From: a virus
Length of the DNA stretch: 64,000 bases
Strand: one strand, 5' to 3'
IMG/VR virus record: IMGVR_UViG_3300000553_000005
Location: 64,001-128,000 of that record
Part shown: positions 1,086-50,632 of the stretch, piece by piece
Numbering within the stretch: position 1 is the stretch's first letter
Layout: each line of letters opens with the position of its first letter
Notes under the pieces: generated by a model
Seen by the model: only the letters and a program-made list of their open reading frames with translations
Databases searched by the model: none
Told to the model about the DNA's origin: nothing
Program-made: the position numbers and the translations under genes

Positions 1086-1176
1086 GGCCCCATGGTGAAA
1101 TTGGTAGACACGTTGGCTTCAAATTCCAATGCGAAATAACAGTAGCGTCCCGGTTCGATTCCGGGTGGGGCTACCA
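1086..1176 (+). tRNA. tRNA-Leu(CAA), long variable arm
   Basis: Acceptor GGCCCCA/TGGGGCT, Leu-type D arm, loop TT-CAA-AT (31:39 mismatch), GGTTCGATTCC, A73+CCA. Confidence 0.88.
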
Positions 1177-1928: not shown

Positions 1929-2046
1929 GCCCGAATAGCAGAATTGGCATATGCAATGGACTTATCGACTCCTCTAATGTAGGTGGATGGAGGTAGTCAC
2001 ACCCAAAATCCATGGTTTGCGGGTTCGACTCCCGCTTCGGGCACCA
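1929..2046 (+). tRNA. tRNA-Leu(TAA), short variable arm, with a 41-nt insertion (putative intron ~1964-2004) in the anticodon
   Basis: Perfect acceptor GCCCGAA/TTCGGGC, anticodon stem ATGGA/TCCAT, T arm GCGGG-TTCGACT-CCCGC, ACCA end; removing 41 nt gives loop CT-TAA-AA. Confidence 0.8.
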
Positions 2047-2053
2047 ATTTCAA

Positions 2054-2138
2054 GGGTGAGTAGCTCAGAGAAAGAGCATCTAGTGGTGATTGAGTTCATC
2101 TTAGAAGGTCGGTGGTTCAAGTCCACCCTCATCCACCA
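2054..2138 (+). tRNA. tRNA-like RNA with Ala identity elements (G1-C72, G2-C71, G3.U70, A73) and an extended anticodon arm; anticodon not assignable
   Basis: Acceptor GGGTGAG/CTCATCC, D arm GCTC/GAGC, T arm GGTGG-TTCAAGT-CCACC, ACCA; 17 nt between anticodon-stem strands TCTAG/TTAGA. Confidence 0.75.
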
Positions 2139-3877: not shown

Positions 3878-4108
3878 ATGTTAAGTCTTGAATCAGTCAT
3901 GAAACGAACCGAAATTGAGTATGAAAAGGTCACTGGGGTAAAAGGAGTTCATTCTGAGCAAATAAAGGCCCTTGCTGCCGCTCTGGTAGGTGAAATCAAC
4001 ATAGAGCTTCAAGGTATTCACGATAGTCTTACCGGGGCTTACAAGCTAGCCAGGAAGCTAGATGGTGAGATAGCTGGTTCTGTTAGAATCATAGGGGGAA
4101 GACATTAA
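3878..4108 (+). CDS. hypothetical protein
   Basis: AGGAG SD; operon packing. Confidence 0.65.
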   Translation: MLSLESVMKRTEIEYEKVTGVKGVHSEQIKALAAALVGEINIELQGIHDSLTGAYKLARKLDGEIAGSVRIIGGRH

Positions 4109-4389
4109 TGTTAGATGGAACTGAATACTTTGAATGTGCTTGCGGGGGTGATGAACACACTCTCCGTTTCATTATTGATAAAGAAGATAAAAGACTATAC
4201 ACTTCTGTATTCCTTAATGATTACCAATCTATTTGGAAGCGTGTTTGGATCGCCATTAAATATATTTTTGGCTATAAGTGCCAGTATGGTCATTGGGATT
4301 ACTGGATCATGCGTTACGAAGATATTCCTAGAATGAGAGAGATGCTAGACAAAATGGATGGGGCAGACCCAACTAAGGAGAAATCGTGA
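4108..4389 (+). CDS. hypothetical phage protein
   Basis: TAATG overlap; CxC..EH and RVWIAIKYIFG..YGHW motifs typical of a phage family. Confidence 0.7.
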   Translation: MLDGTEYFECACGGDEHTLRFIIDKEDKRLYTSVFLNDYQSIWKRVWIAIKYIFGYKCQYGHWDYWIMRYEDIPRMREMLDKMDGADPTKEKS

Positions 4390-4751
4390 TAGGTTCAATC
4401 TTAGCTTTAATCTGGCTCCATTTCATTGCTGATTTTGTGCTTCAGACTGATAAGATGGCTATCAATAAGAGTTCCAACAATCTGTGGCTCGGTTTTCATG
4501 TTCTGGTTTACACAACGGTCCTTCTTCTTTTTGGTTGGCAGTTTGCCCTGTTGAATGGAGTTGCTCACTTCTTAACAGATTGGATAACTTCTAGGGTAAC
4601 TTCCTATCTTTGGAAAAAAGAAAAGCGTCATTGGTTTTTTACAGTTATAGGCTTGGATCAGGCCATTCACATGACCACTCTTATCCTTATATTTAACTAC
4701 TTTTTTAAGAATTTCATCCATATGCCTCTAGTCAGTTGGATAATGAAGTAA
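4386..4751 (+). CDS. DUF3307-like membrane protein
   Basis: HFIADFVLQ, H..VY, HFLTD and DQAIH motifs. Confidence 0.8.
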   Translation: MIGSILALIWLHFIADFVLQTDKMAINKSSNNLWLGFHVLVYTTVLLLFGWQFALLNGVAHFLTDWITSRVTSYLWKKEKRHWFFTVIGLDQAIHMTTLILIFNYFFKNFIHMPLVSWIMK

Positions 4752-4787
4752 GTATACAACTTTTCTCTCCTTTTATTGGAGGGAAAA

Positions 4788-5180
4788 ATGTTGAGTCATA
4801 TAATTAATGTAGTTTATAGTGTTTTTAGGGAAAAATTAGTAAAAAAGGTAACAAGAAGTCCTGAATGGCCGAAAGTCGAGAAAGAACATCTTGAGTCTCA
4901 ACCATTTTGTGCAGCGTGTGGGGGAAAGGACCGACTTCAAGTTCATCATCAGCAGCCTTTCCACTCTGATCCAGCTTTGGAACTTGATCCTCATAATCTT
5001 ATAACTCTTTGTATGTCTACATTAGAGTGCCACCTCCGAATCGGCCACGGTGGCTCATTTAAGCAATATAACCCAAACGTTGTAGCTGATTGTATAACTC
5101 TCACCCTTCACCCCGATCAGAGATCTGTTATTGAAAAGAAAGCTTTTGACTCAAGAAAACCGAATGAACCTGGAGATTAA
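4788..5180 (+). CDS. HNH endonuclease
   Basis: CAACG...LQVHH...NLITLC...CHLRIGH. Confidence 0.85.
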   Translation: MLSHIINVVYSVFREKLVKKVTRSPEWPKVEKEHLESQPFCAACGGKDRLQVHHQQPFHSDPALELDPHNLITLCMSTLECHLRIGHGGSFKQYNPNVVADCITLTLHPDQRSVIEKKAFDSRKPNEPGD

Positions 5181-5698: not shown

Positions 5699-7123
5699 AT
5701 GAAGCTGAATTTGGGTTGCGGATTTAACCATTTAGAAGGATTTGTCAATGTAGATCAGCACCCTTCAACCGGTGCTGATTTCATTTGGAATCTTGAAACT
5801 CTCCCTTGGCCGTGGGAGGATAGCTCTGTAGAAGAAATTCAATTAACTCATGTTCTTGAGCATATTGGACAGCAAACAAATAAATACTTGGCTATCATTA
5901 AAGAAATCTATAGAGTTTGTGCCCCGGATGCTAGGGTTACTATTGAAGTCCCTCATCCTTTGCACCCCGATTACTTAGGTGATCCTACTCATTGTAGACC
6001 AGTGACTTATGAAAGTCTTCGTCTGTTTGATTTAGATTTTGCTGATATGCTTATTGCTCATCATAGCCCTGGAACCCCCTTAGCTAGGTTTATGAAAGTT
6101 GATCTTCAAGTAGTAGACCATTTACAATTTTTTGATTCAGACAGAGGGATTCTTCAAGTAAGCAGAATGATTTTGAGAGTTAAGAAGCCATTTAGGGAAT
6201 TACCAGAAGAAATTTCTATCTGTGAAATGAGTATGGGCCTAGGGGATATTTGCATGGCTTTGTGTGTAGCTAAAGCTCTGGCTCATAAAAATTACAAGAT
6301 ACATTTTGTTACGATACCTAAATGGCACGATCTTATCAAGGCTTGCCCACACGTTAGTTCCGTTAGTTCTAAACAGACTGCTAAGGATATTTATCTTTCC
6401 CCTGCTTGGTTCCAACTTCAAGCTGCCCATCAGGTAGACACTTTATTAAAAGCTTGCGGAGTGACTGATGTTTCTAACCATTTTAAATCTTTAGATTTAA
6501 ATATTTCCCCTTCTGTTCTTGAAAATATTCAAACAAGATTTCCTGGAAATAAAAGAATAGCCATTAATCCTGCTTGTAATACAGAGAATCGTAGGTGGCC
6601 TATTGAATATTGGAAAGAATTAGTTCGTTTACTTCAAACTTCAGGAATAGAAGTATGTTCTTTAGGGATGACATCTTGGTATGGAGTTAATAATTCTCAT
6701 CAATTTGAAGGAGTCACTAATGTTTTTGATCTCTCTACTTTTGAAGCTATAGCTTTTTTACGACAATGTAAAGTATTAGTTTCGGGAGATTCAGGTCCAA
6801 TTCAACTGGCCGGGGCTACTGATTGCGGTATTGTAGGATTATACTCAGTTGTCTCGTCCCAATGGAGGCTACCTTTCCGTCATGGAGAATTAGGATGGAA
6901 CGCTATTGGATTAAATTCTACCTGTCCTCATGCTCCCTGCTTCCCTAAATTAGTGAAGGATACAAATTTTTTATGGTCCAATGAAGCTCAAGCTTCTCTC
7001 AATTCTGGGGTATCTATGGGTGATCTTGTTAGAAATTGGTGCCCCAACGGTGCTATCACTTGTATGCAAGAAATTCCGGTATCTATGGTATATGATTCGG
7101 TTATGAAATTATGGAATACTTAA
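5699..7123 (+). CDS. class I SAM methyltransferase-like domain fused to a GT9 (heptosyltransferase-like) glycosyltransferase
   Basis: LNLGCG..VNVD..HVLEH..DPTH in the N-terminus; GLGD, RRWPIEYW and SGDSGPIQLA in the C-terminus. Confidence 0.8.
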   Translation: MKLNLGCGFNHLEGFVNVDQHPSTGADFIWNLETLPWPWEDSSVEEIQLTHVLEHIGQQTNKYLAIIKEIYRVCAPDARVTIEVPHPLHPDYLGDPTHCRPVTYESLRLFDLDFADMLIAHHSPGTPLARFMKVDLQVVDHLQFFDSDRGILQVSRMILRVKKPFRELPEEISICEMSMGLGDICMALCVAKALAHKNYKIHFVTIPKWHDLIKACPHVSSVSSKQTAKDIYLSPAWFQLQAAHQVDTLLKACGVTDVSNHFKSLDLNISPSVLENIQTRFPGNKRIAINPACNTENRRWPIEYWKELVRLLQTSGIEVCSLGMTSWYGVNNSHQFEGVTNVFDLSTFEAIAFLRQCKVLVSGDSGPIQLAGATDCGIVGLYSVVSSQWRLPFRHGELGWNAIGLNSTCPHAPCFPKLVKDTNFLWSNEAQASLNSGVSMGDLVRNWCPNGAITCMQEIPVSMVYDSVMKLWNT

Positions 7124-27144: not shown

Positions 27145-28290
27145 ATGACAGATCCTAAGGAAAAGAAGTTAGCCATGAGCGAAGTGGCGTTATTATCAGA
27201 AAAAGCCAAGAAGTATGACCCCTTGGCTACGGAAGCAGAGGTAGTAGCAGATATTCGCAGAGTGCAGGAAGATTACCCGACTAAGCATATTACTCGTAAT
27301 TTCTATCGTATTTATGGTAAGTACTCTGATGGCACTTGGAACAAATATTTTGGTACATGGTTAGAGGCGAGAAGGCAAGCAGGGCTGGAACTCAATCGCT
27401 TCCAGCATGGAGTTGAACGTGATGTGGCTAAACATGCCCATCTAGATTTATATCGTCAATTTCAAAAAGATGAAATTGATCCTTGGGTTGGTAACTATAC
27501 GCTTCCCCCCGAAAACGGGGAGCGTTTTAAGAAAATCTTAATTTGCTCAGACCTTCATGATAAGCAGCTAGATCCCTTCTGTTGGTCAGTTTTTCTTGAT
27601 ACCGCCGCCAGAGTCCAGCCAGATGTTATTGTTTTAGCAGGGGATGTTTATGATGAGGCAGAGTTCTCCAGATTTGATCAAGATCCTCGTCAATATAGCA
27701 TCAAGGAAGCCTCTGATTTTGTTAAAGAAAAGATTTTTAAGCCCTTGAGAGAAGTTTGCCCAACTACTCAAATTGACTTTATTATTGGCAACCATGATCT
27801 CCGCATCCTTAAATATCTAGCTAATAAATGTGCTAATATGAGGGTATTGCTATCTGATGTTATGGATCTTACTCTAGAAGATCTCCTTGGGTTGAAGGAA
27901 TTCAACATCAAGCTAGTTTCTAGATTTGATCTAAGTGCCTTTACCCCTGCTGAAAAGAGGTCTGAGATCAAGACCAACTATAAAATTTACTACAATTCAC
28001 TAGTAGTAGACCACCATGGCCTCCAAACTTTTGGCCTCTCAGTTTGCTACGGGCATACTCACAGGACTAAGATGGACTCCAGTGCCAATCTAATCGTTGG
28101 CCCCATTCATGCGGTGAATATGGGTTGCATGGCAAAGATTGACTTTGAGTATCAAGAACGTATGAACAAGTCTCACCAATCTTTCTGTCTTTGGCATATT
28201 GATACTAAAACCAAACAATGCCAACCCGAACATTTCATTTTCACTGATGAAATGATCTGTGTGGCAGGTAAATTCTATACTAGAGGCTGA
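27145..28290 (+). CDS. calcineurin-like metallophosphoesterase with N-terminal DNA-binding-type repeat
   Basis: SDLH, AGD, GNHD, GHTH; N-terminal FGTWLEARRQAGL. Confidence 0.8.
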   Translation: MTDPKEKKLAMSEVALLSEKAKKYDPLATEAEVVADIRRVQEDYPTKHITRNFYRIYGKYSDGTWNKYFGTWLEARRQAGLELNRFQHGVERDVAKHAHLDLYRQFQKDEIDPWVGNYTLPPENGERFKKILICSDLHDKQLDPFCWSVFLDTAARVQPDVIVLAGDVYDEAEFSRFDQDPRQYSIKEASDFVKEKIFKPLREVCPTTQIDFIIGNHDLRILKYLANKCANMRVLLSDVMDLTLEDLLGLKEFNIKLVSRFDLSAFTPAEKRSEIKTNYKIYYNSLVVDHHGLQTFGLSVCYGHTHRTKMDSSANLIVGPIHAVNMGCMAKIDFEYQERMNKSHQSFCLWHIDTKTKQCQPEHFIFTDEMICVAGKFYTRG

Positions 28291-28898: not shown

Positions 28899-29522
28899 AT
28901 GAGTGTTTTTCTAACATCAGATCTCCATTTCGGCCATGAACGCATAATTGAGATGTGTGATCGTCCTTTTGGCTCCGTGGATGAAATGAACGAAGCTCTG
29001 ATTGCCAATCATAATAATCTCGTTAATCCTATGGATACCGTATATTTCCTGGGTGATGTAGCTATGGGTAAGATTGCTGATTCCCTTCCTTTAGTTGATA
29101 GGATGAATGGGGTTAAGATCCTTATCGCTGGTAATCATGATCGCTGCTCTCCTTACTATAAGCATAAGCGAGAGGATATTCGGGAGACTTGGTATCAAGA
29201 GTACCGTAAGTATTTCTCTCTAATTATACCTAGTATTGAGCTTATGCTTGGTCCTCATGGGCAATCGATTCTTTTACACCATTTCCCTTATGCCGATCCT
29301 TCCTACAAAGATCATTCTTATGAAGGGCGTTATCAAGAGTTTCAGCCTGAGAACAATAATCTTTGGTTACTTCATGGTCATGTTCATACTGGTTGGAAGA
29401 TTAAGGGAAAACAAATCAATTGTGGAGTTGATGTTTGGAACTTCTGTCCGGTAGAGATTGCAGCCGTTCAGCAGCTTATGCTAGAGCAATCACAGGAGGT
29501 TCAAAATGAGCAAGAAAGCTAA
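28899..29522 (+). CDS. metallophosphoesterase
   Basis: SDLHFGH, LGD, GNHD, HGHVH, NCGVD. Confidence 0.9.
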   Translation: MSVFLTSDLHFGHERIIEMCDRPFGSVDEMNEALIANHNNLVNPMDTVYFLGDVAMGKIADSLPLVDRMNGVKILIAGNHDRCSPYYKHKREDIRETWYQEYRKYFSLIIPSIELMLGPHGQSILLHHFPYADPSYKDHSYEGRYQEFQPENNNLWLLHGHVHTGWKIKGKQINCGVDVWNFCPVEIAAVQQLMLEQSQEVQNEQES

Positions 29523-32080: not shown

Positions 32081-33103
32081 ATGAACAAGACAATTTCTAT
32101 CCATCCGGTGCCAGAGCTTATTTCTCAACCCGATGGATATTCGTGCGGAGCAACAGCCGCTAAGATGATGCTTAATGTATATGCTCCAGCTAATGACCTT
32201 ACGTTAGAAGAGGTCAAGCAGCTTTTCCTTACTAATCCTGCCACTGGGACAACCCATGAGGGTATGATTAACGGTTTGACTGCTTTGGAGATTCCTTACA
32301 CCCGTACCTTCCAGGCTGAAAAGCCGTTTGAACTGGTGGATGAAGCCCTTAAGCAAAACAAGCTCTTTCTCATGAGAACAGCTATTCATGGATGTAAGCA
32401 TTGGCTCCTAGTCTATGGTAAGGACAAGGAGAACTATCTTATTGCTGACCCCATGGGCCGCTATTGGGTTTGTTCCAAAGCTTTCATGGATGAGATTTGG
32501 GGCTGTCGAGAATATGATGGTTTCATCATTGAAAAGTCTTTTAACGATGAAACCGTTGAAATTCGCAAGATTGAACCCCATGAAGTTGATGAAGCTCTCC
32601 TTGATGCTGGTTTTGGTAGTTTCAAGGACAAGATTGGTGGCACTGCAAATGGGTTTTATAACTCTGTTATGTGGGCCATGGAAAGCCTTGATAATGCTTA
32701 TGTGGCTGTTTACAGGAACAGAATCATCGGTGGCTACTTCCTTGAATTCAACAAGATTGGTAGTTTCTATTTGAATGATTCAGGAGAAAACTACAAGGAT
32801 AAGGTTGGCATTCAAGGTGTCGCTCTTTTCCTTCTTCCAGAGTTTAGGGGCCAGGGAATCGGGGCGGCTCTAAGAGCTATTCCGGTTGAAATGGAGGGGG
32901 TGGATTATGTTTGGGGTATGCATCTCGCCAGTCTCAAGAATGTCAAGAATTGGGTCAAGTATGGCCGAAAGGTAATTTCCGGTAGTGAAGATGGGTTTGC
33001 TGTTACCCTGATGGACTTGAATGAACAAAGGAGAAAGAATGGCACCAAGACTGAAGAAAAATTGGAAAATAGTTTGCATAGCGGATACTCACACACAGCA
33101 TAA
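32081..33103 (+). CDS. C39-like cysteine peptidase fused to a GNAT acetyltransferase
   Basis: Q..YSCGATA, HW and IADP triad; PEFRGQGIG acetyl-CoA motif. Confidence 0.8.
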   Translation: MNKTISIHPVPELISQPDGYSCGATAAKMMLNVYAPANDLTLEEVKQLFLTNPATGTTHEGMINGLTALEIPYTRTFQAEKPFELVDEALKQNKLFLMRTAIHGCKHWLLVYGKDKENYLIADPMGRYWVCSKAFMDEIWGCREYDGFIIEKSFNDETVEIRKIEPHEVDEALLDAGFGSFKDKIGGTANGFYNSVMWAMESLDNAYVAVYRNRIIGGYFLEFNKIGSFYLNDSGENYKDKVGIQGVALFLLPEFRGQGIGAALRAIPVEMEGVDYVWGMHLASLKNVKNWVKYGRKVISGSEDGFAVTLMDLNEQRRKNGTKTEEKLENSLHSGYSHTA

Positions 33104-33713
33104 TACCATTAAGCTTCCCAAGGGAGATATGATTATCCATGCAGGGGATGCCACCTATCGTGGAAGCATTGTAGAAATTGAAAATTTTGCTAAGTGGTTT
33201 GGTAAAACCCCATATCGTCATAGGATTTTTTGCGCCGGAAACCACGATTTTCTATTCCAAGATCAACCACATTTGGCTAGAACCATCATGCAAGATAACG
33301 GAATCATCTATCTTCAAGATGAGGCTAGAATTTTTTATGATCCTAAAATTGCCAAAACTATCACTATCTATGCGACACCCCACACTCCGTTTTTTCATGC
33401 GTGGGCGTTCAACGAATACGAGGACAAGCTCAAAGATATTTATGGCATGATTCCTGAGGGTCTGGATGTCTTGGTTACTCATGGCCCTCCACTTGGTATT
33501 CTGGATGAAGTCTGTCAAGATTTTAAGCAGAAGTGGCTGGGGAGCGCAGCACTGAGAGACAGGATTCACGAAGTCAAACCCCGCTTCCATGTCTTCGGTC
33601 ATATTCATGAAGGCTACGGTCAGAAGTTTCAGGGAGAGACTCAATTTGTGAACGCTGCTACTTGCAATCGGCAGTATCGTCCTGTGAATCCCCCGATTGT
33701 AATCAAAGTTTAA
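33039..33713 (+). CDS. metallophosphoesterase (MPPED-like)
   Basis: ADTH, HAGD, AGNHD, THGPP, FGHIHEG. Confidence 0.9.
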   Translation: MAPRLKKNWKIVCIADTHTQHNTIKLPKGDMIIHAGDATYRGSIVEIENFAKWFGKTPYRHRIFCAGNHDFLFQDQPHLARTIMQDNGIIYLQDEARIFYDPKIAKTITIYATPHTPFFHAWAFNEYEDKLKDIYGMIPEGLDVLVTHGPPLGILDEVCQDFKQKWLGSAALRDRIHEVKPRFHVFGHIHEGYGQKFQGETQFVNAATCNRQYRPVNPPIVIKV

Positions 33714-35919: not shown

Positions 35920-36933
35920 TTATCCTAAAATAACGGTTTTATATGATACCCCGGCATTCATACACATTATGAGTCCCGCAGCTTCTAAATAATTTTCTAC
36001 AAAGACGACTTTCTTGTTCCCTCTGATCCCTTCAGGATAAGAGAAATTACTCTGACAAGTAGTGTTCTCCATTACGACTATGATAGGGATACCGTGATTT
36101 AGACAAGAGATATGAGGACTTCCCCAACAGTTATGGGGGGTTAGGAGGAAATCTATATCTTCATTAGATATATTCTTGGGATTTTTAATCAGATCAATCA
36201 GAGGACTTTGATGTAATCCCTTTAAAACACAAAAAAGATAAGTATTGGATATAATCTCTGGAGATTGAGAGGGTTTAACCACTACCTTGTTATAAAGATT
36301 ATCTTGAAGAAAATCCATTGGAGCATGAGCGACTGGTTTATCAATGGCTGAAGCAATATATTTACTAATTTGAGCTTCAATCGCTCCCCAAGGATTAACT
36401 GTAATATCTCCCTCCCAATAACTATTAGCAAGTTCTTCGTCACAATCAATAGTGGTGTGAATAGCCAAAGCATCAAAATCTTTATCTTTAATTTGTTCAA
36501 TAAGGGCTATTAAACCACTGGCAGATCCCCCCGCAGTTCCATCGTCATTTAGATGAGCTTTCATGATCAGGGGGGTAGTTAGTTCTAAAAGTTCAATCTC
36601 AGCCCCAAGGCCCCATATACCGGCATTAACCGCATTGATGCTACCTGGAGTAATAGGGGAATTTACTACACAGAGAATTTTGTTATGAGTTTTTACTGGT
36701 TTCAGATTGATTGAACCAGCTAAGAACCTATCAATGATGGAACCTTCGACATAAAGGCAATTGGGAGTTTGTTCGTTAATGTCCGAAGCATTACATAAAT
36801 TTGGATTCACCACTAATTTTTTACAGCATCCAGCTATAAGTTTCAATCCTGGATTAAAGGCTGCGTCACCACCTAAAGAACAGCCAAGGCCAGTGGGGAT
36901 AATCATCACACCGTTGATACTAGGTATAGGCAT
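35920..36933 (-). CDS. DUF3326-like protein
   Basis: IIPTGLGCSLGGDA, NPN..NA, LYVEG..IDRF, NPWG.IEA, PVAHAP, ENYLEAAG. Confidence 0.75.
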   Translation of the reverse strand: MPIPSINGVMIIPTGLGCSLGGDAAFNPGLKLIAGCCKKLVVNPNLCNASDINEQTPNCLYVEGSIIDRFLAGSINLKPVKTHNKILCVVNSPITPGSINAVNAGIWGLGAEIELLELTTPLIMKAHLNDDGTAGGSASGLIALIEQIKDKDFDALAIHTTIDCDEELANSYWEGDITVNPWGAIEAQISKYIASAIDKPVAHAPMDFLQDNLYNKVVVKPSQSPEIISNTYLFCVLKGLHQSPLIDLIKNPKNISNEDIDFLLTPHNCWGSPHISCLNHGIPIIVVMENTTCQSNFSYPEGIRGNKKVVFVENYLEAAGLIMCMNAGVSYKTVILG

Positions 36934-36935
36934 TG

Positions 36936-39900
36936 TTAATTTCTCACTATGTTATGTTCTGTTACTAAATTTCCACCCAAAGTTTTCAAAGCAAATGCCT
37001 TGGCTTTTTCTGGATCAAAATCCTTGCAAGAGAAGACGTTAATGAAAATTTTCTGAAGTTCATCCAAGGCATGAATAGTTATAGAAGATTCGTAAAGGAA
37101 CTGAACTACGCTGATTCCATCTTTCTTGGGATGGGTTTTGTAAGTTCCTTCAAACTTATCCTGGCCCCAACTGTAAATTGGTCCTCGCTGCATATCAATT
37201 TCATCACAGAGGTCTTCGGCAAACTTTTTCAAGATGTGGGTCTGGAATTTATCTGGGTCAACATCATGAAGATCCATAATAACCTCTTGGCCGTAATGCT
37301 CTTTCTTAGTTTCTTCAATAATTTCATCGCTATCATCGGCTACCTTTTTAATATAAGTAATGTAGCCCTGCTTGACACTGGCGGCTTTTGAATAGGGAGT
37401 GATGGCCGTAACCACTTCTACTTGCTTCTTACTACGAAGGCCCTGCATAGCCTTATCCCACAAATCTTTGTCCAGTTTGAAAGTTGTGCCTAAGTGGTAA
37501 ACTTGACCAAATTGGTCTTCTATATGTTTCTTAAAGCTTCTTAGTGGAGTCATCCCTGAGAGATTTTCTAAGATAAACTCTTGAAGTTCTTCGATGAACT
37601 GCTCTCTCGGATAGTATTTTTCCATGCCACCATAGGCTTGTTTGATTAGCAGACTCGCTTTTTTAACTGATAATTCTCTCAATTGTTGCTCCGTAATTTG
37701 CCTCGTGTCTAAAAGAACTTGAAGTGTTGCCTGATAGAATCCAGAGTCAATTCCCATAGTTTCATTTCTTATGGCTCTCTCGGCTATCTTTTCATCGTAC
37801 ATCTGGAAATGAGAATCTTCATCCATTCCTAATTTTTTCTGAATATAAGCCATGGTATCATCCATATCCTGCATATAGTAGGAAATGAAGCAGGATACAG
37901 CACAAAAAGAGCCTTTTTTATAATTAATTTCATTTCCCGCTGGTATAGCTTCATGGCAATCTTCACATTTTTGACAGAACCCACCCCTTACCAAAATTTT
38001 CTCACGTTCTGCCTCAAGATCATCATAACCATTGATGTTTAGTTGTTCCTCAATATAGGTTCTAGCTCTCCTCTTTTTATTTTCATCAGCATTCGGCAGA
38101 AACTTATCTATTAAACGATTTATCGCTGGTCGGAAATACTCCCTTACACAATAACTGCAACAATAGGGATTGCCAGATAAATAGATGGCATCTTCTTCTG
38201 CCACAGGCTCATCACAATTAGCACAATTGGTTAGCTCCTGATCTTCATGATCTTCATAGAGATCATTATCATTGTTAATATCCCAAGCACCAGGGAAGAT
38301 AATTTTTTGCTCCATCGATTCTTTAATCTTCGGATCAAATTCTGCAAGTGTTTCAAAAATCCACCAGTAATTTGAATCTACATCATATTTTTGCCCAACA
38401 TCAGCACTATCACTAAACGGATCCCTACTAAATATCTGATCTCCAATATTTCTACCATCTACATCTTGGCATTCAATAGCACCAACTCCTTGACCTTGAA
38501 TATTTTTGGTCGGGACTCGGATGAGTGCATAGCGATCAGAACCATAATGCTCATTGGTGCCACTGTCCTGAGTAATAACATAGAGAGGACCACGTTCCAG
38601 ATAGGCTTCAGCGGTCCCCTCCCCCTGTGTACACCAATGGGAACCTGTTGACATAAGCACCAAGGCTTCTGGAGTGGTACAACGATAGAAGGAGTAACCT
38701 CTGGTCTTAGCTAAAGGCTCACAACCATCTCTGAGATACTTATCCTTCTCTCTAATTAATTCTCTACCCTGCTCATTTTTGGATAGGTCGGCTCTAGTAG
38801 CCGTGTCATATATTTCTTTAAGATCTGAAAGACCTAACTTCATGATATCTTTTTCACCAGTAAAATTAGCACTACGTTTTAGCATAGCATAACGTTCAAG
38901 CATAATTTTAATATCATCTCGTTTCATTGTTCCGGCTAGCGAAGATCTACCTTCTGGATCATCCATAGCTTTTCTAGTCTCTCTACATAACCATTCTAAA
39001 TATTCTCCATTTTGAGAAGGGTCAACTAAAGATAGAGTATCTACCCCATGAGGAGGGAGATGATATTTAGAAGCAAGAGCTTTTTTCTTAGCTTCCGAAG
39101 CGGCGGCAAATTTCAATAGAGCAGATTTAAAGTTAGAAAGTGAAGATTTCTTCAGTTTTTCAGAAGGTTCAGAGGTAGGTTCCAGTTCATCTGTTGCTAT
39201 TTCACCCTCTATTTCTGGTGCTGATTCCTCTTGCACTTTGCCCATTCCACTATTTTCAATAATATCATCAATATCTGTACTCGTAGGGGTGAATTGGTCC
39301 TTAACATATTCTAGTATGTCATCGTAAAGCGTATCATAAGTCATCAGTTCATCATAAACCGGCTGAAGGACTTTCAAGGCCCATTTATAATCCCCTAGAG
39401 TTAATCCGGGGGTCACTTTTTCTACTCTGTCACTCTGCCCATTTTCAAAAGCTCTAATACCTGATGTCAGATTAGCTAAATACCAATCAAGAGCATAGTG
39501 ATGGTTAACAGTATTGGGGAGACCCATTCGGATAGCTGCTTCATGCATTGCTCTAAATACTTTGGTGGCCTTTGGATCCCAGCCTGTCCCATAAATGAGT
39601 TCCTCGGCATCATCCATAGCTTTTTGATTTCTTTCTTCTTTTCCTGGAATAGTTGCAACAAATGCCTTTACTTTTTTCTCAATTATATCATTATAAAACT
39701 CTTTAAAACATCCCTCGCAACAAAAATTATGGCTTTCTTTATCAGGGGAGTCATCATTATTCACATAAATAGTATCGTAGCTGTCTGTTTCCATATATGC
39801 ATCACATTGATCACATTTTTCAAAATGAGCCATATCATTAATATCATTAAAAATAAATCCTTCTCGGATATATCTTTCCAAATCCCTATCATAATTAGAC

Positions 39901-40646
39901 AACCATTGAACTATTCCCCACCATTCATCATTGACTTGATAACATTTATCTTCAATTTCCCAGTTTCCTATATCCTCACCATCTGCATCTTGAGCTTCAA
40001 ATCCTGTGACAGAATCATCCGGAACATGAATCTGAAGATAGCGATCTGATTCATAAGAACTTTCTTTTTCTTCTGTAGTAAAGACATAAATGGCTCCCCT
40101 ACTTAAATAACGTTGGGCATAGCCTGGGTTCTTAGTACACCAATGAGAACCTTCCCCCATCAATTGCACGGCTCTTACAGTAGTCGGCTCATAACATACG
40201 ACACCTTCACCTGGACTGCCGATCTCTTCACAGCCTTCTGCTAAATATTGTTTCCTTCTTCTCTGTAAATCTCTCTCTCGCTCTTTCTTAGAATAGTCAT
40301 CAGGAGAAGATTCTTGTATAACACTGATAAGATCGTTAAAATTGGCATAGGAAAGAATATTATTTTTGGGTTTACCATTAATCAAACCTGTAGCCCAGGC
40401 AGCACTATTTTTTAAACGTCCAAACTCCTCCAGAGCATCTTTTAATTCATCTTGAAGTGCTGGCCCCACATTTTCGTCATGTCTCAAGACTTTTACTAGC
40501 CATTCGGTATATTGACCGTTTGGAGTTGGATCTATATTCGCACAGATCTCTACGAATCCTTGGGAAACCAAATATTTTTTCTCCAGTGCCTCCTTCTTTG
40601 CCTGTGAAGCTGCGGCTAGAAGACTCAATAAAGTTGACTTGAACAT
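36936..40646 (-). CDS. 1236-aa polyprotein: two tandem PcfJ-like (HWCT) plus Zn-finger modules and a C-terminal S-adenosylmethionine decarboxylase-like domain
   Basis: Internal duplication (DP..NGxY.EWL, GSHWCT, SDRY, CxxC..CCxxC); C-terminal YGQEVIMDL..GISVVQFLYESSITIH..INVFSCKDFD. Confidence 0.8.
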   Translation of the reverse strand: MFKSTLLSLLAAASQAKKEALEKKYLVSQGFVEICANIDPTPNGQYTEWLVKVLRHDENVGPALQDELKDALEEFGRLKNSAAWATGLINGKPKNNILSYANFNDLISVIQESSPDDYSKKERERDLQRRRKQYLAEGCEEIGSPGEGVVCYEPTTVRAVQLMGEGSHWCTKNPGYAQRYLSRGAIYVFTTEEKESSYESDRYLQIHVPDDSVTGFEAQDADGEDIGNWEIEDKCYQVNDEWWGIVQWLSNYDRDLERYIREGFIFNDINDMAHFEKCDQCDAYMETDSYDTIYVNNDDSPDKESHNFCCEGCFKEFYNDIIEKKVKAFVATIPGKEERNQKAMDDAEELIYGTGWDPKATKVFRAMHEAAIRMGLPNTVNHHYALDWYLANLTSGIRAFENGQSDRVEKVTPGLTLGDYKWALKVLQPVYDELMTYDTLYDDILEYVKDQFTPTSTDIDDIIENSGMGKVQEESAPEIEGEIATDELEPTSEPSEKLKKSSLSNFKSALLKFAAASEAKKKALASKYHLPPHGVDTLSLVDPSQNGEYLEWLCRETRKAMDDPEGRSSLAGTMKRDDIKIMLERYAMLKRSANFTGEKDIMKLGLSDLKEIYDTATRADLSKNEQGRELIREKDKYLRDGCEPLAKTRGYSFYRCTTPEALVLMSTGSHWCTQGEGTAEAYLERGPLYVITQDSGTNEHYGSDRYALIRVPTKNIQGQGVGAIECQDVDGRNIGDQIFSRDPFSDSADVGQKYDVDSNYWWIFETLAEFDPKIKESMEQKIIFPGAWDINNDNDLYEDHEDQELTNCANCDEPVAEEDAIYLSGNPYCCSYCVREYFRPAINRLIDKFLPNADENKKRRARTYIEEQLNINGYDDLEAEREKILVRGGFCQKCEDCHEAIPAGNEINYKKGSFCAVSCFISYYMQDMDDTMAYIQKKLGMDEDSHFQMYDEKIAERAIRNETMGIDSGFYQATLQVLLDTRQITEQQLRELSVKKASLLIKQAYGGMEKYYPREQFIEELQEFILENLSGMTPLRSFKKHIEDQFGQVYHLGTTFKLDKDLWDKAMQGLRSKKQVEVVTAITPYSKAASVKQGYITYIKKVADDSDEIIEETKKEHYGQEVIMDLHDVDPDKFQTHILKKFAEDLCDEIDMQRGPIYSWGQDKFEGTYKTHPKKDGISVVQFLYESSITIHALDELQKIFINVFSCKDFDPEKAKAFALKTLGGNLVTEHNIVRN

Positions 40647-41501: not shown

Positions 41502-42441
41502 TTTTCTGAAGCTGGAGTTCTAAAAACTCTTCAGCATTTTTTTCATCAAATTTCACTTCTATCACAGAATAGTTTGATCGTAACCAAATGTCCCTCGCTA
41601 TTTGGGATTCAAAATGCTTTTTTGTCTTATGGAAATAGTTTGGAAATATATAGTGCTGCACTCCATTATACTCAACAACCACCCTTAATTCCGGCAACCA
41701 ATAGTCAACCCTCACCCTCCCACTCTTACTTACGTCTTTTGGGCATACTAGAGGAAACTGAGGGATAGCTTCAATCCCCAGTTCACTAATTACCTTTCCT
41801 AGGCGTTTCTCATTCTTCCCCTTCGCACACTCTGGACAGCCCTTACCTCTAGAAAAATTTGCCCAAGAAATCCTCCACAAAAACCCGCAAGAAACACACT
41901 TTACCCTAAGCAATGAATGAGCAGTTTGATAATCGTCAACACATCTTATTTCAATCCCCATCTCCCTCATTTTGTCGGCAACACTGATTTTCGTTTTCCA
42001 TGACTTCTCCTCATTCCTTTTTCGCAACCTCTCTGCTAGTAGTAGTTGATTGCATTTTGGACATGTTTTAGCACGAAATAGGGTTTCATACCTTGCTTGA
42101 AAGATATGTCCACACCCCAGTCCTAACCAGTTATGTTTGTATTTTTGCCCAAGAAATTGTGAATCAAGAAGTTTGTATTTCGATTCGTTGCACACTCGTT
42201 TACCTTTATTATATCTAACTAGTCTCGTCGTGTGCCCATTTCTACTACAAATAGGGCAGGGATTCCCAGGGCTATCCATTACGAATCCCCAAGCCGTGGT
42301 CCAGATATGTCCGCACTCCCCCATCCAGGTCAGATTTTTGTCTCTGATGCCAGAATATACCCCATCAACCAGCTTAACATTTTTCTTGTTTTCTTCCAGC
42401 CAATCGAGTATCATTTCATTAGTCCATTTTGTTCCTTTCAC
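41464..42441 (-). mobile_element. putative homing endonuclease: Zn-ribbon repeats plus C-terminal Vsr/DUF559-like nuclease
   Basis: Three CGH..W/CP.C units; RVDYWLPELRVVVEYNGVQHY. Confidence 0.8.
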
Positions 42442-42463
42442 TCTTCACCCCCTAGGAGTAGCC

Positions 42464-42877
42464 ATGCAGATGATAATTGCCGTTGGACCATCAGGCTGTG
42501 GGAAATCTCACTTCTTTATTAATTACTTGAAGCCCCAAGGATTTATAGAGGCCAGTGCGGATCATTTCTTTGAAAAATCTGGAGCTTACCAATTTAATCC
42601 TCGTGAACTTGACAAAGCCCATGAATTTTCTCAGGAAGAAGCCCGAGAGGCCATATCTAAGGGTTTGAAAGTTTATATTTCAAACACCAACACCCGCGAA
42701 TGGGAACGCAAGCCATATGTAGATTTGGCGAATAAGGTAGGTTACGAGGTTTGGTTGAAGGTGTTTGATGTGGATGCTGAAACTTGTGCCGCTCGTAATA
42801 CCCATGGTGTTCCTCTGGAAGCCGTGAAGAAGATGAAGGAAAGGATTGACGTTCCGGCAGGTTTTTTCAAGGTGTAG
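42464..42877 (+). CDS. polynucleotide-kinase-like P-loop kinase (AAA_33)
   Basis: AVGPSGCGKS, SADHFF, SNTN, RNTHGVP; AGGAG SD before ATG 42464. Confidence 0.85.
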   Translation: MQMIIAVGPSGCGKSHFFINYLKPQGFIEASADHFFEKSGAYQFNPRELDKAHEFSQEEAREAISKGLKVYISNTNTREWERKPYVDLANKVGYEVWLKVFDVDAETCAARNTHGVPLEAVKKMKERIDVPAGFFKV

Positions 42878-42879
42878 TA

Positions 42880-43242
42880 ATGACCAGAATTTTATTTGTA
42901 GATGATGAGGAAGTGCGTTTCACCCTCCTCAAAATGAGGGATTTCTTCCCCGAAGAGGCAGAAGTCTGTTCTGTCAATAATGCCATAGATGCCATCACGG
43001 CTGTCAGAGATGAGCTTTGGGACACCATTTTTCTGGACCATGACCTCAATACTTTTGTTGATGGTCAGGAGATTACCGGATTGGATGTCGCTAAATCCAT
43101 TATTCAATTTGCCGTTGGTGCCCCCGATTGTATTATCCATAGTATGAATCAGTCGGCGGCGTGGCGAATGGAGAAAACTCTCCAAGAAGAAGGGTTTTTC
43201 ACTCAAGTCATTCCTTTCCACAAACTTCCGGAAAGGATGTAA
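42880..43242 (+). CDS. cyclic-phosphate-processing receiver domain protein
   Basis: ILFVDD..R, FLDHDL, TGLDVA, IHSMN..AA.RM; adjacent to the kinase. Confidence 0.8.
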   Translation: MTRILFVDDEEVRFTLLKMRDFFPEEAEVCSVNNAIDAITAVRDELWDTIFLDHDLNTFVDGQEITGLDVAKSIIQFAVGAPDCIIHSMNQSAAWRMEKTLQEEGFFTQVIPFHKLPERM

Positions 43243-44365: not shown

Positions 44366-46957
44366 GTGGATTTGGCACAGTTGAAATCACATTTCCCTTT
44401 TCCTGAGATTCGACCATCTCAGGAAAAAGCTCTGGAAAAATTTGTAGTGGATGAAGAGAAGGGTAAGAAGTTTTCTATTTTTGAACTACCTACTGGTATT
44501 GGAAAGTGTTTCGCAAAAGGCACTCCCATCCTTATGTTTGATGGGGTAATCAAACCTGTAGAAGAAATTAAGGAAGGAGAGCTTGTAATGGGGCCTGACT
44601 CCACTCCTCGTAAGGTGATCAGTTTATCTCAAGGCAGAGATGAATTATTTAGGGTGACTCCAGTGAAAGGCGACTCTTTTGTAGTCAATTCCTCCCACAT
44701 TCTTTCTGTAAAAATGACCGAAAACCATAAACAAATTATTAACCTAACTTTGTCGGATTATTTGGCTAGAAGCAACAATTTTAAGCATCATGCTAAACTT
44801 TATCGAACTGGCGTAGATTTTGAGAGTGTATTAACACACGATTTAAAAGAACTTGCTTATTATATTGGATTATGGTTGGGGGATGGTTCTTCAAAAAGGT
44901 TGACTGAAGTTACTACTGCGGATAAAGAAATTCAAACCTATTTAAGCAATCTAGCTTCAAATTTTGGCCTTAGTTTGACTGCATATAACAATGGATCTAA
45001 GGCTACTTCTTGGAATATAACTACACAGGCTATGGGAGGTAGAAAAGATAGAAATATTTTATTAAACGAATTAAAGAAACTAGATATTTCTTCTAACAAG
45101 TCCATCCCTTTGTCTTTCAAAACCGCATCTAGAATTTCCAGACTTAAGTTACTCGCAGGTTATTTAGATGCTGATGGGAGTTTAGCCTCTAATACATTTG
45201 AATTTTCATCAGTTAATAAAAATTTAGCAGATGATATTTCATTTATAGCCCGTTCTCTTGGGTTCAGTGTGTATGTTAAACCTTGCCATAAAACTTGTCA
45301 AACAGGAAATGGGGGGGTTTACTATCGCGGGAATATAAGTGGGGATATCCATTTGATCCCAACTCTCCTCCCAAGAAAACAAGCAAAAATGAGACAGCAA
45401 AAAAAGAGTGTGCTTGTTACTGGTTTTAAAGTGGAACCTGTTGGACTAGGGGATTATTATGGTTTTGGTGTTGATGGGGACCACTTATTTCTTTTGGGGG
45501 ATTTTACAGTAGTTCACAATTCCGGTCTTTCTATTGCAGCTTTAGGGTGGGCTGCGGATTGTCCTGTTGAACCCCCCTTGAAACCTGGAGGAACGATCCT
45601 CACTTCTCAAAAGATTCTACAGGATCAATATGCGTCTGAATTTGGAAGTATTGGTCTAGCTGATCTTCGTGGTGCCTCTAACTACCGATGTGGGGAGCAG
45701 GAATCTAACTGTGAAATCGGCAGTGTTATGAATAAACTGGCTGGAACTATCTGTGAACATTGCCCTTACAGAAGTGCCAAGGCAGCTTTTATGGCTTCTC
45801 CCAGGGGTATTACTAATTTTGCCTATTATCTTACAGACTCAATGTTCAAGCGGCAACTACCGAAGCGTAAGCTCATAATTATTGATGAAGCGCATAATAC
45901 TGAAAATGTTTTGATCGCTTTTTCTGAAATTGGTATTTCAGCTAATCGTCTAGAAGAATTTGATATTAAACTTCCCACTAAACCACTTACTACTATTCCT
46001 GAAACTAAATATTGGGTAGAGCATACAGTTATTCAAGCCGCTGACATTTATGGAATTAAGTTAAAGGAAGAAATCGCTGCGGCTCTACAAGGACATGGAA
46101 GTTTGATGGCTTTGCTTAAGAAGGAAATGAATCTCTCCTCTTTCAAGAGTAACCTTGGTAAATTTCTAGAATCAGAGTCAGAGATGTGGTTTATTCATCA
46201 GACTGACGGTTTGGGTATCAAGCCGCTTCGTGGGGATGTTTTCTCTGAGGAACTTCTTTTTAGTCGGGCTGAAAAAATCATGTTCATGTCTGCTACCATT
46301 CTGGACCCTCGCACTTTTGTTCGCAATCTAGGAATTTCAGTCAAGGATTGTGGCTACATGAGTCTGCCTTCAGAATTTGCTCAAGATAACAGGAAAATCA
46401 TTTTCACCCCCGCTGGCTCTATGTCTTACAAAAATTATGACACCACTCTACCCAAGCTCCTCAACAAGATTGAGCGTATTTTGGAGAAGCATAAGAATGA
46501 AAAGGGAATTATTCATTGCCAATCGTTCAAGTTGATGAATCATATTCAACAGGGTTTAAGGAGAAGTCCTCATTACTCCAGATTGGTCGCACATGACTCC
46601 CAATCTCGCGCCTATGCAGTGGATAGGCACTTGACCTCAACAGAGCCTACGGTGCTTCTCAGCCCCTCTATGACCGAAGGTTTGGACCTTCGTGGGGATC
46701 TATCCAGGTTTCAGGTGGTAGCGAAAATGCCTTTCAATAACTTGGCAGACCCTTATGTAAAAAGAAGAATGGAGTTAGATAAAGCGTGGTATTCTTGGAC
46801 AACAGCCCTTACTCTCATTCAGGGTTTAGGTCGTTCCATCCGTTCTAAGGAAGACTATGCCAGGAGCTATATTATAGATCAGGATTTTAATATGTTTTTG
46901 AAAACCTGTAATGATATACTACCTGAATGGTGGCTAGAGTCAATTGAATTTCGCTAA
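44366..46957 (+). CDS. DinG/XPD-family helicase containing an intein
   Basis: R..Q, ELPTGIGK|S, Fe-S Cys cluster, DEAH, SAT, EGLD, QGLGR.IR. Confidence 0.92.
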   Translation: MDLAQLKSHFPFPEIRPSQEKALEKFVVDEEKGKKFSIFELPTGIGKCFAKGTPILMFDGVIKPVEEIKEGELVMGPDSTPRKVISLSQGRDELFRVTPVKGDSFVVNSSHILSVKMTENHKQIINLTLSDYLARSNNFKHHAKLYRTGVDFESVLTHDLKELAYYIGLWLGDGSSKRLTEVTTADKEIQTYLSNLASNFGLSLTAYNNGSKATSWNITTQAMGGRKDRNILLNELKKLDISSNKSIPLSFKTASRISRLKLLAGYLDADGSLASNTFEFSSVNKNLADDISFIARSLGFSVYVKPCHKTCQTGNGGVYYRGNISGDIHLIPTLLPRKQAKMRQQKKSVLVTGFKVEPVGLGDYYGFGVDGDHLFLLGDFTVVHNSGLSIAALGWAADCPVEPPLKPGGTILTSQKILQDQYASEFGSIGLADLRGASNYRCGEQESNCEIGSVMNKLAGTICEHCPYRSAKAAFMASPRGITNFAYYLTDSMFKRQLPKRKLIIIDEAHNTENVLIAFSEIGISANRLEEFDIKLPTKPLTTIPETKYWVEHTVIQAADIYGIKLKEEIAAALQGHGSLMALLKKEMNLSSFKSNLGKFLESESEMWFIHQTDGLGIKPLRGDVFSEELLFSRAEKIMFMSATILDPRTFVRNLGISVKDCGYMSLPSEFAQDNRKIIFTPAGSMSYKNYDTTLPKLLNKIERILEKHKNEKGIIHCQSFKLMNHIQQGLRRSPHYSRLVAHDSQSRAYAVDRHLTSTEPTVLLSPSMTEGLDLRGDLSRFQVVAKMPFNNLADPYVKRRMELDKAWYSWTTALTLIQGLGRSIRSKEDYARSYIIDQDFNMFLKTCNDILPEWWLESIEFR
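44507..45520 (+). mobile_element. 338-aa intein with LAGLIDADG homing endonuclease, inserted in Walker A
   Basis: N-terminal CFAKGT, C-terminal VVHN followed by Ser; GLWLGDG and LAGYLDADG blocks. Confidence 0.95.
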
Positions 46958-49750: not shown

Positions 49751-50632
49751 ATGTTTCGATCAACAAAGGTAGCGGCAATTTTTGATTTTGATAAAACCCT
49801 ATCACCTCAATATATGCAGAAAGTTATCTTTGATGCCTATCAAGTAGATGAAGATTCATTCTGGGTTGATTGCCGTAAACGCTCAAAAGAAAATGAAATG
49901 TTATTTGGTGGCACTCACCATGAAGTAGATTATATGGCTACTATGCTTTCCTATGTTAAAAATGGCAAATTTTTGGGTTTGACTAATGAGAAGTTAAAAA
50001 GTTTGGGAGAAACCATTCCACTCTATCCAGGTGTAGCTTGGATGTTTAATGAGATTTGGAAAACCGGAGCAGAAATTTATATTATCTCTTCTGGTATTAA
50101 AACTATGTTGGGAACTCTGGAAGGGCGTATTCAAAGGGAAATAAATAATGCAGATTTCCGCATTTCTGGAATTTATGGTGGAGATTTCAGAGAAGATGAG
50201 AATGGCCTCTGTAGTATTGCCAACTGTATTAGTGCTATGGATAAGACTCGCTTCATTTACGAGATCAGTAAAGGCTGCAATATTTATAATTTTGATGTAA
50301 CCACTTCTGTCCCTATCGGTGGAAGGCGTGTTCCCTTAGAAAACATTATCTATGTCGGAGATGGTCCCTCAGACGTTTGGGTATGGAACCTTATTAAAGA
50401 CTCTGGAGGATATACTATGGGAGTTTTTAATCCAGAATTCCCCTCTCAATTTGAATTGGTAGAAAATATCCGCAAGGGTAACAGGCTAGATACAGTAGCC
50501 GTAGCCGATTATCGTGAAGGATCGACAGCCGCTTCCTGGATTCTTGGTAAAATCAAAGAAATGATAAAATTAAGTTCAGAAGAATATATGATTAAACAAA
50601 GGGTTACAACCATTAAACGCCCTGGATACTGA
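49751..50632 (+). CDS. HAD-family hydrolase
   Basis: DFDKTL, ISSG, K, YVGDGPSD. Confidence 0.9.
   Translation: MFRSTKVAAIFDFDKTLSPQYMQKVIFDAYQVDEDSFWVDCRKRSKENEMLFGGTHHEVDYMATMLSYVKNGKFLGLTNEKLKSLGETIPLYPGVAWMFNEIWKTGAEIYIISSGIKTMLGTLEGRIQREINNADFRISGIYGGDFREDENGLCSIANCISAMDKTRFIYEISKGCNIYNFDVTTSVPIGGRRVPLENIIYVGDGPSDVWVWNLIKDSGGYTMGVFNPEFPSQFELVENIRKGNRLDTVAVADYREGSTAASWILGKIKEMIKLSSEEYMIKQRVTTIKRPGY

Follow-up and report, generated by a model that had tools for sequence, protein, structure and literature searches.

The interrupted tRNA gene and its neighbours

The DNA analysed here (64,000 nt, hereafter the window) makes up the latter half of a 139.8-kb IMG/VR virus record with a G+C content of 40% (G000; estimated completeness 49%, CheckV), and its source is an uncultured freshwater jumbo-type phage. 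No cultured phage matched the window at the DNA level, and the nearest protein match was the UvsX of an Acidobacteria jumbo phage (45% identical). A cluster of tRNA and tRNA-like genes occupies positions 63–70 kb of the genome. Within this cluster, ARAGORN with introns enabled, a check that an earlier sequence-only reading of the locus had proposed, returned a 77-nt tRNA(UAA) gene with a 41-nt insert in its anticodon (positions 1929–2046; Table 1). The gene was reported neither by ARAGORN at default settings nor by Rfam at the gathering threshold. A free-standing HNH gene lies between the interrupted gene and an ordinary tRNA-Leu(CAA) gene.

Table 1. Positions of the interrupted tRNA gene, its parts, neighbouring genes and candidate RNA-processing genes in the window
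Feature	Position	Strand	Evidence
Class II tRNA-Leu(CAA), ordinary; context gene	1086–1176	+	ARAGORN, Rfam
Free-standing HNH homing-endonuclease gene	1181–1876	−	Pfam HNH_3; phrog_10822, E 5e-52
5′ exon, tRNA-Leu(UAA)-like	1929–1963	+	ARAGORN intron mode; 34/35 identical to the L188 orthologue
41-nt insert, mini-intron candidate	1964–2004	+	ARAGORN intron mode; RNAfold; covariance model R1, 52 bits
Insert stem, 5′ strand	1967–1975	+	RNAfold; compensatory changes over three copies
Apical octaloop GUAGGUGG (family consensus GUWGSUGG)	1979–1986	+	Comparison of three copies
Insert stem, 3′ strand, bulged U at 1994	1989–1998	+	RNAfold; compensatory changes over three copies
3′ exon	2005–2046	+	ARAGORN intron mode; 40/42 identical to L188
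P-loop kinase (AAA_33), candidate 5′-OH polynucleotide kinase	42137–42877	+	PF13671, E 4e-17
cREC domain protein, predicted 2′,3′-cyclic phosphate processing	42880–43242	+	PF20274, E 9e-13
T4 Rnl1-type RNA ligase, candidate sealing enzyme	61845–62960	+	PF09511, E 1e-20; phrog_562

The 5′ exon contains the 5′ strand of the acceptor stem, the D arm, the 5′ strand of the anticodon stem and the loop bases C32, U33 and U34, and the 3′ exon contains A35, A36, A37 and A38, the 3′ strand of the anticodon stem, the variable loop, the T arm, the 3′ strand of the acceptor stem, A73 and CCA. Once the insert is removed, these parts form a 7-bp acceptor stem, a D arm with a 3-bp stem and an 11-nt loop with GG, a 5-bp anticodon stem (1956–1960/2009–2013) with a 7-nt loop holding U33 and a purine at position 37, a 5-nt variable loop, and a 5-bp T stem with the loop UUCGACU (UUCRA type), followed by A73 and the encoded CCA. 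The sequence-only reading had described the tRNA elements as all intact, and the intron-mode call agrees. Cloverleaf folds were obtained for the spliced sequences of all three copies described below. The long variable arm of class II bacterial tRNA-Leu is absent, the variable loop being only 5 nt. In its D arm (3 bp + 11 nt) and A73, the gene matches the neighbouring class II tRNA-Leu(CAA), and its acceptor stem resembles that of the class II tRNA-Leu(UAA) in a distant relative (G004, see below). The interrupted gene and an uninterrupted gene of another relative (L001:8650–8726) both have Leu-type bodies that have lost the long arm.

Excision of 1964–2004 and of 1965–2005 gives the identical product loop, CUUAAAA, as the sequence-only reading had noted. 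A cut at 1963–2003 would yield CUCAAAA and thus the anticodon CAA; this option was rejected, because the orthologous copy in L188 can give only CUUAAAA, and the anticodon of the window gene is therefore UAA. The insert itself consists of a 5′ AUC, an irregular stem, the apical octaloop and a 6-nt 3′ tail. Its hairpin has approximately 11 bp with one bulged U, and the order of 4 bp, bulged U and 5 bp was found exactly as it had been drawn from the letters alone. The octaloop is closed by A-U and U-A pairs at 1977–1978/1987–1988.

Several other tRNA-like genes of these phages depart from the usual form. A conserved family (window 2054–2138; L001:9498–9660; L047:8053–8136; L234:1928–2011) has normal acceptor, D and T arms and CCA, with an extra stem (15–17 nt) in place of the anticodon loop; in L001:9498–9660, an insert of ~90 nt replaces the loop. 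The G3.U70 "alanine" pair of the window member is lost in the G004 homologue (U1-A72, C3-G70), so alanine identity is not the conserved feature of this family. The clade also gives long variable arms to tRNAs that normally belong to class I (Lys, Ile, Arg, Thr, Cys, Gln and Asn; 84–103 nt). Examples lie just upstream of the window (genome 63047–63132 and 63139–63241), in L188, at L048 c[6654-6754] and at L001:5973–6065, and many occur in L047/L048. Four lineages share a conserved tRNA-Ile(UAU)-like gene whose variable region forms two hairpins.

The hairpin family in two different tRNA genes

Uncultured relatives were reached via neighbouring proteins. L188, a scaffold from an ENA lake metagenome with an HNH protein 66% identical to that of the window, carries the orthologous tRNA gene with a 41-nt insert. 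G004, a 313.6-kb IMG/VR genome rated 100% complete, encodes an SNF2 helicase 62% identical to that of the window and ~55 tRNA genes, one of which is 116 nt long and also includes a 41-nt insert. The body of this interrupted gene has Asn features (U1-A72, G73 and the variable loop AUGUC), and removal of the insert produces the loop CUGUUAA of a tRNA-Asn(GUU). Only one cut restores GUU in G004, and its boundaries relative to the hairpin are the same as those of 1964–2004 in the window. The insert lies between anticodon bases 34 and 35 in the Leu gene and between 35 and 36 in the Asn gene, and the Leu copies give the same product when cut at 35/36. The distances from the hairpin base to the two junctions are constant in the three copies, at 3 nt upstream and 6 nt downstream.

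The family comprises three inserts (window, L188:376–416(−) and L047:9985–10025 in G004), all of 41 nt and alignable end to end. They have in common a 5′ AUCG, the G of which opens the stem, a GUWGSUGG loop with six of its eight positions invariant, the invariant A-U and U-A closing pairs, and a closing C followed by the 6-nt tail, which has an A at its centre. Hardly any of the stem sequence is shared, yet its pairing is kept; the L188 insert contains 1-nt indels that compensate each other, leaving the length at 41 nt. In a model-based alignment of only these three sequences, which was fitted to the structure, 23 of 23 cells were standard pairs and four of eight pairs had changed on both sides, compared with 24%–48% of cells paired and zero compensatory pairs in a control in which the 3′ partners were slid by 1–3 columns. 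The sequence-only reading had suggested looking for covariation in related phages, and this was borne out: the insert is conserved, and its stem covaries in the L188 and G004 copies.

Covariance model R1 matched once in G000, once in G004 and not at all in G001–G003. With one copy per genome, the insert is thus not a dispersed repeat. Strict and relaxed patterns applied to IMG/VR, JGI metagenomes and GTDB genomes returned G004 plus chance matches only, a loose insert pattern in IMG/VR gave none in a tRNA among the matches listed (at least 116), and a pattern of D loop and T loop with a long gap gave doubtful ARAGORN calls only. Four IMG/VR loci (L205, L206, L210 and L213) have tRNA-like genes with 12–50 extra nt between the D loop and T loop; their ARAGORN intron calls are doubtful, and the 41-nt insert occurs in none of them. 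Several samples yielded near-identical contigs with the same interrupted gene and its 41-nt insert. This recurrence, together with the presence of the insert in the diverged L188 lineage and in a different tRNA of the distant G004, indicates that it is more than a chance insertion.

The exons of the window and L188 are identical at 74 of 77 positions (95%–97%), whereas their inserts are 46% identical when ungapped and ~60% identical when aligned by structure. In the neighbourhood, the corresponding values are 75% for tRNA-Leu(CAA), 67% for the HNH gene and 69% for the spacer. A dead gene would decay, and the exons are far better conserved than the insert and the flanking DNA, which argues that they are under selection. 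Of the three differences between the exons, two compensate each other as a base pair of the anticodon stem, and this change arose with the insert present in both lineages. The apical region of the L188 insert is nearer to that of G004 than to that of the window, which suggests that the insert moves independently of its host gene, as a mobile element would.

Uninterrupted counterparts were found in other relatives. In L001/L002 (neighbouring protein 66% identical), a 77-nt gene at L001:8650–8726 has a Leu-type D arm, a short variable loop and the anticodon loop CUCAAAA, and a LAGLIDADG gene adjoins this intron-less orthologue. The G004 locus lies between tRNA-Ala(GGC) and tRNA-Pro(UGG). At this syntenic position, G001 has uninterrupted tRNA-Asn(GUU) genes, as do ten more loci from metagenomes; in some of the latter, the neighbouring gene shares 99% identity with that of G004. 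The uninterrupted counterpart of the G004 exons is a 77-nt type (L236:1679–1755). The insert is optional among close relatives. The possibility that the interrupted gene is the sole tRNA-Asn of G004 was rejected, as immediately upstream there is another tRNA-Asn(GUU)-like gene (L047:9858–9946), which scores low and has a long variable arm; with this second gene next to it, the interrupted gene is not one on which G004 demonstrably depends. Within the G004 group, the tRNA-Asn locus changes greatly from phage to phage, its variants being a 94-nt type with a 77-nt type, a 94-nt type with the last ~30 nt of the 77-nt type (L234:3828–3860), an 84-nt type followed by an HNH gene, and, in G004, the low-scoring long type with the interrupted 77-nt type and an HNH gene.

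These findings identify the 41-nt hairpin as a real, conserved and mobile mini-intron-like element, structurally new within a kind of element that has hardly been described. Homing-endonuclease genes stand close to it. In G004, an HNH gene (L047:10123–10593) lies beside the interrupted tRNA gene and is missing at that spot in G001, and the HNH proteins flanking the interrupted genes of the window and G004 belong to different families. The HNH gene of the window was considered as a partner of the insert and rejected, given that its homologues adjoin class II tRNA-Leu genes in many insert-free phages. A helicase gene in the window (44366–46957) contains a Hint/LAGLIDADG intein, and further HNH genes lie at 4776–5180 and 27145–28290; with the intein and the HNH genes at these positions and at 1181–1876, the genome is rich in homing elements. 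The SNF2 helicase of L001 (L001:14875–17883) has 1002 aa compared with 651 aa in the window, and its greater length and a LAGLIDADG match make it likely that this protein, too, carries an intein.

Comparison with known RNA elements and candidate enzymes

Group I introns of bacterial and plastid tRNA-Leu(UAA) genes are ~200 nt or longer, with a P1–P9 core and a terminal G. The insert resembles them in interrupting the same tRNA species between anticodon bases 34 and 35, in following a 5′ exon that ends in U (all three copies) and in being mobile, group I introns often being accompanied by homing endonucleases. However, it has only 41 nt folded into one hairpin, it lacks the P1–P9 core, the three copies end in C, U and C and not in G, and neither RF00028 nor any other Rfam family matched the two copies scanned at E ≤ 10. 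A group I intron was therefore rejected, and the earlier view that the insert is far too small for such a ribozyme holds. In the same scan (E ≤ 10, two copies), the hammerhead, twister, pistol, hatchet, HDV and hairpin ribozyme models gave no match.

Protein-spliced tRNA introns of archaea and eukaryotes involve a bulge-helix-bulge, the EndA/Sen endonuclease and RtcB or Trl1; in the archaeal type, two 3-nt bulges hold the splice sites and are separated by a 4-bp helix. Like the insert, these introns are short, non-catalytic and located in or near the anticodon loop, and their removal by an endonuclease and a ligase is the mechanism that we propose for the insert. In contrast to them, the insert has no bulge-helix-bulge at its junctions: every helix-bulge-helix-bulge-helix arrangement was enumerated exhaustively in the three pre-tRNAs and none coincided with the junctions, so that an intron of this type was rejected and the sequence-only reading, which had seen no such motif, is confirmed. 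In the RNAfold structures, the two splice sites pair across from each other in L188 and in neither of the other two copies. Neither EndA (PF01974) nor the RtcB family occurs in G000 (completeness 49%), in G001 or in G004, whose genome is complete. Bacteria are the presumed hosts, and we know of no EndA/Sen-type tRNA splicing pathway in them.

Three further identities were considered and rejected. A tRNA-shaped mini-intron, or a minihelix for RNase P/Z, does not fit, as the stem begins at base 4 of the insert and not at its first base, the loop is GUWGSUGG and not UUCRANY, and the 6-nt tail has no CCA. A DNA hairpin element of the IS200/IS605 or REP type would call for a Y1 transposase (PF01797), which had no match in the genome, and the insert is present in a single copy per genome. 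The octaloop was also compared with Chi (GCTGGTGG), which two of the three loops do not fit; a strand-biased excess of the Chi octamer GCTGGTGG in the genome is due to a Gly-rich coding repeat (genome 1520–4409).

Standard annotation misses short tRNA inserts in phages, and the literature contains one mention of them, as "enigmatic". That study described "enigmatic" introns in tRNA genes of Lak megaphages, gave no mechanism for them and stated that phage tRNA introns were previously unreported (Devoto et al. 2019; PMC6784885). In the literature searched, we found no published precedent besides the Lak megaphages and no later paper resolving the Lak introns. Like the insert, the Lak introns add a short stretch to the anticodon region of phage tRNA genes that are otherwise normal; they are optional among relatives, conserved where present and without an Rfam class (PMC6784885). 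However, the Lak phages infect gut Prevotella and the illustrated example is tRNA-shaped (PMC6784885), whereas the present family, from freshwater phages, forms a plain hairpin with a conserved octaloop rich in G and U. The present family also interrupts two different tRNAs and shows covariation; the Lak paper (PMC6784885) contains neither a structural family nor boundaries of this kind. The insert, lying in the anticodon region of a canonical tRNA, optional and outside known RNA classes, can be placed among the "enigmatic" phage tRNA introns.

The surroundings of the insert recall another known arrangement. In collaborative homing, an intron without an ORF lies beside a free-standing homing endonuclease gene, as for cyanophage psbA and F-CphI. 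The insert is likewise ORF-less, situated in a conserved gene, adjoined by a free-standing endonuclease gene and optional in relatives. However, the introns known from collaborative homing are self-splicing group I introns, whereas the HNH genes flanking the present inserts come from two unrelated families and their targets are putative.

A known model for a protein-dependent removal is the repair of anticodon loops in T4, in which PrrC cuts, Pnkp heals and Rnl1 seals. The proposed route shares with it the kind of ligase, a nick in the anticodon loop held by the cloverleaf, and kinase and phosphoesterase partners. The T4 pathway, however, mends a single cut inflicted by the host and excises nothing, whereas two cuts and the loss of 41 nt would be required here. 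The sequence-only reading had proposed that a protein nuclease, together with healing and sealing enzymes encoded in the window, removes the insert. The healing and sealing half of this proposal is plausible: the window encodes a candidate ligase of the Rnl1 type and, at 42137–43242, a candidate kinase with the cREC gene directly 3′ of it. The cREC domain is predicted to open 2′,3′-cyclic phosphates and has been linked to RNA ligases in jumbo phages (PMC7824862). The cutting half fared less well, as no cutting enzyme was found. The repair genes, moreover, are not specific to insert-bearing genomes, because they are present in G001, which has no insert; Rnl1 was found in both G001 and G004. The RNA-repair toolkit of the window also includes an RlaP-type nucleotidyltransferase (55288–56208), and Metallophos (calcineurin-like phosphoesterase) proteins are encoded at 27145–28290, 28899–29522 and 33021–33713. 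A HAD-like ORF (49751–50632) was considered as a counterpart of T4 Pnkp, and no tie was established.

Removal of the insert and alternative readings

RNA from the locus was sought in the assembled contigs of three lake metatranscriptome runs, which cannot show a rare or small product. The spliced junction that the sequence-only reading had suggested seeking in such data did not occur among these contigs, a result that neither shows nor excludes splicing. One contig spans 1479–2039 with the insert retained and is compatible with a precursor, contaminating DNA or RNA that is never spliced. Gaps in depth across the tRNA region in these data carry no meaning. Another contig (run X2) departs from the reference at ~1161, in the 3′ end of tRNA-Leu(CAA), into unrelated sequence, and may come from a co-occurring strain without the HNH gene there.

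The reading that we favour, tentatively and at somewhat less than an even chance, is that the 41 nt constitute a mobile, structured mini-intron in a working tRNA-Leu(UAA) gene, cut out by a hairpin-guided nuclease and resealed by Rnl1. After transcription, a protein endonuclease of the phage or host would recognise the insert hairpin via its conserved octaloop and would cut at the fixed spacing of 3 nt upstream and 6 nt downstream from the hairpin base. The cloverleaf would keep the two tRNA halves together, and the phage Rnl1 would reseal the anticodon loop, after end healing if needed. Rnl1 is a ligase specialised for nicks in anticodon loops. At the DNA level, the insert probably spread alongside the free-standing homing endonucleases that crowd the tRNA clusters. 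As the same hairpin splits a tRNA-Asn gene in a distant relative, some tRNA inserts are probably removed in bacterial viruses by a route not described before. A tRNA-splicing pathway of the phages' own, with mobile 41-nt introns recognised by their octaloop, a nuclease cutting at a fixed distance and Rnl1 joining the halves, is a candidate for this route that we regard as possible and advance with reserve. That the insert might also hide the anticodon from host nucleases, as the sequence-only reading had proposed, is speculation.

The insert might instead never be spliced. The cloverleaf, processed by RNase P, provided with CCA and perhaps charged by LeuRS, would then serve as a scaffold displaying the hairpin as a protein-binding site, decoy or regulator. 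This is a real alternative, since the clade keeps tRNA-like RNAs in which an extra stem or a long insert takes the place of the anticodon loop, and the conserved octaloop resembles a recognition site. The RNA seen is unspliced only, and no splicing nuclease was found. LeuRS requires neither the anticodon arm nor the variable arm, so the unspliced form could still be leucylated. Nevertheless, we consider it rather unlikely. The seven loop bases flanking the insert are exactly canonical in two different tRNAs (C32 and U33, a purine at position 37, and an anticodon in keeping with the tRNA body), and a display function needs none of them. AsnRS reads the anticodon, and the Asn body of G004 would therefore stay uncharged if it remained unspliced. 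The optional occurrence of the insert in close relatives also fits a tolerated parasite better than a needed RNA.

The sites of insertion raise another explanation, namely that the hairpin is a selfish or protective DNA insertion that blocks a homing-endonuclease site or moves as a DNA hairpin, leaving a tRNA without a decoding function. The interrupted genes of the window and G004 are both flanked by free-standing homing endonuclease genes, a LAGLIDADG gene lies beside the intron-less L001 orthologue, and presence or absence of the insert varies among near-identical phages. However, exons that are 95%–97% conserved, with a compensatory change, against flanks at 67%–75% are not expected of such an insertion, and a mere disrupter of a site needs neither a covarying stem nor a conserved loop. 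The lack of a Y1 (IS200/REP-type) transposase and the single copy per genome also speak against it, as do the HNH genes, which differ in family and of which that of the window tracks class II tRNA-Leu rather than the insert. We regard this explanation as improbable.

Very improbable is a new minimal self-cleaving or self-splicing RNA, perhaps including the anticodon stem, whose exons would be joined by a host or phage ligase: its strongly conserved unpaired nucleotides (octaloop, 5′ AUCG and tail A), its constant length of 41 nt and the failure to find a protein nuclease could be explained in this way, but no Rfam ribozyme matched at E ≤ 10, neither the terminal G of group I introns nor a hammerhead core can be read from the sequence, and a single hairpin of ~11 bp can hardly accommodate an active site that cuts twice.

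To our knowledge, protein-dependent tRNA splicing is regarded as archaeal and eukaryal, and for bacteria and their viruses, self-splicing introns are the only established kind. If the favoured reading, a mini-intron excised by a nuclease and sealed by Rnl1, is true, the classic "RNA repair" enzymes of large phages might double as splicing machinery or have evolved from it. The hairpins form a defined and testable family, with a fixed length, a conserved loop, a covarying stem, two host tRNAs, intron-less alleles and candidate enzymes in the same genome. They raise the questions of whether bacterial viruses splice tRNA and whether repair systems of the Rnl1/PNK type have a housekeeping substrate.

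Two further features of these genomes were recorded. G004 encodes a tmRNA (L048 c[4027-4430]) and a tRNA with the anticodon CUA, of the amber suppressor type (L051:1128–1201). In the window, a 1236-aa protein (36936–40646, minus strand) with a C-terminal S-adenosylmethionine decarboxylase domain adjoins a DUF3326 protein (35920–36933, minus strand), an unusual architecture for a phage.
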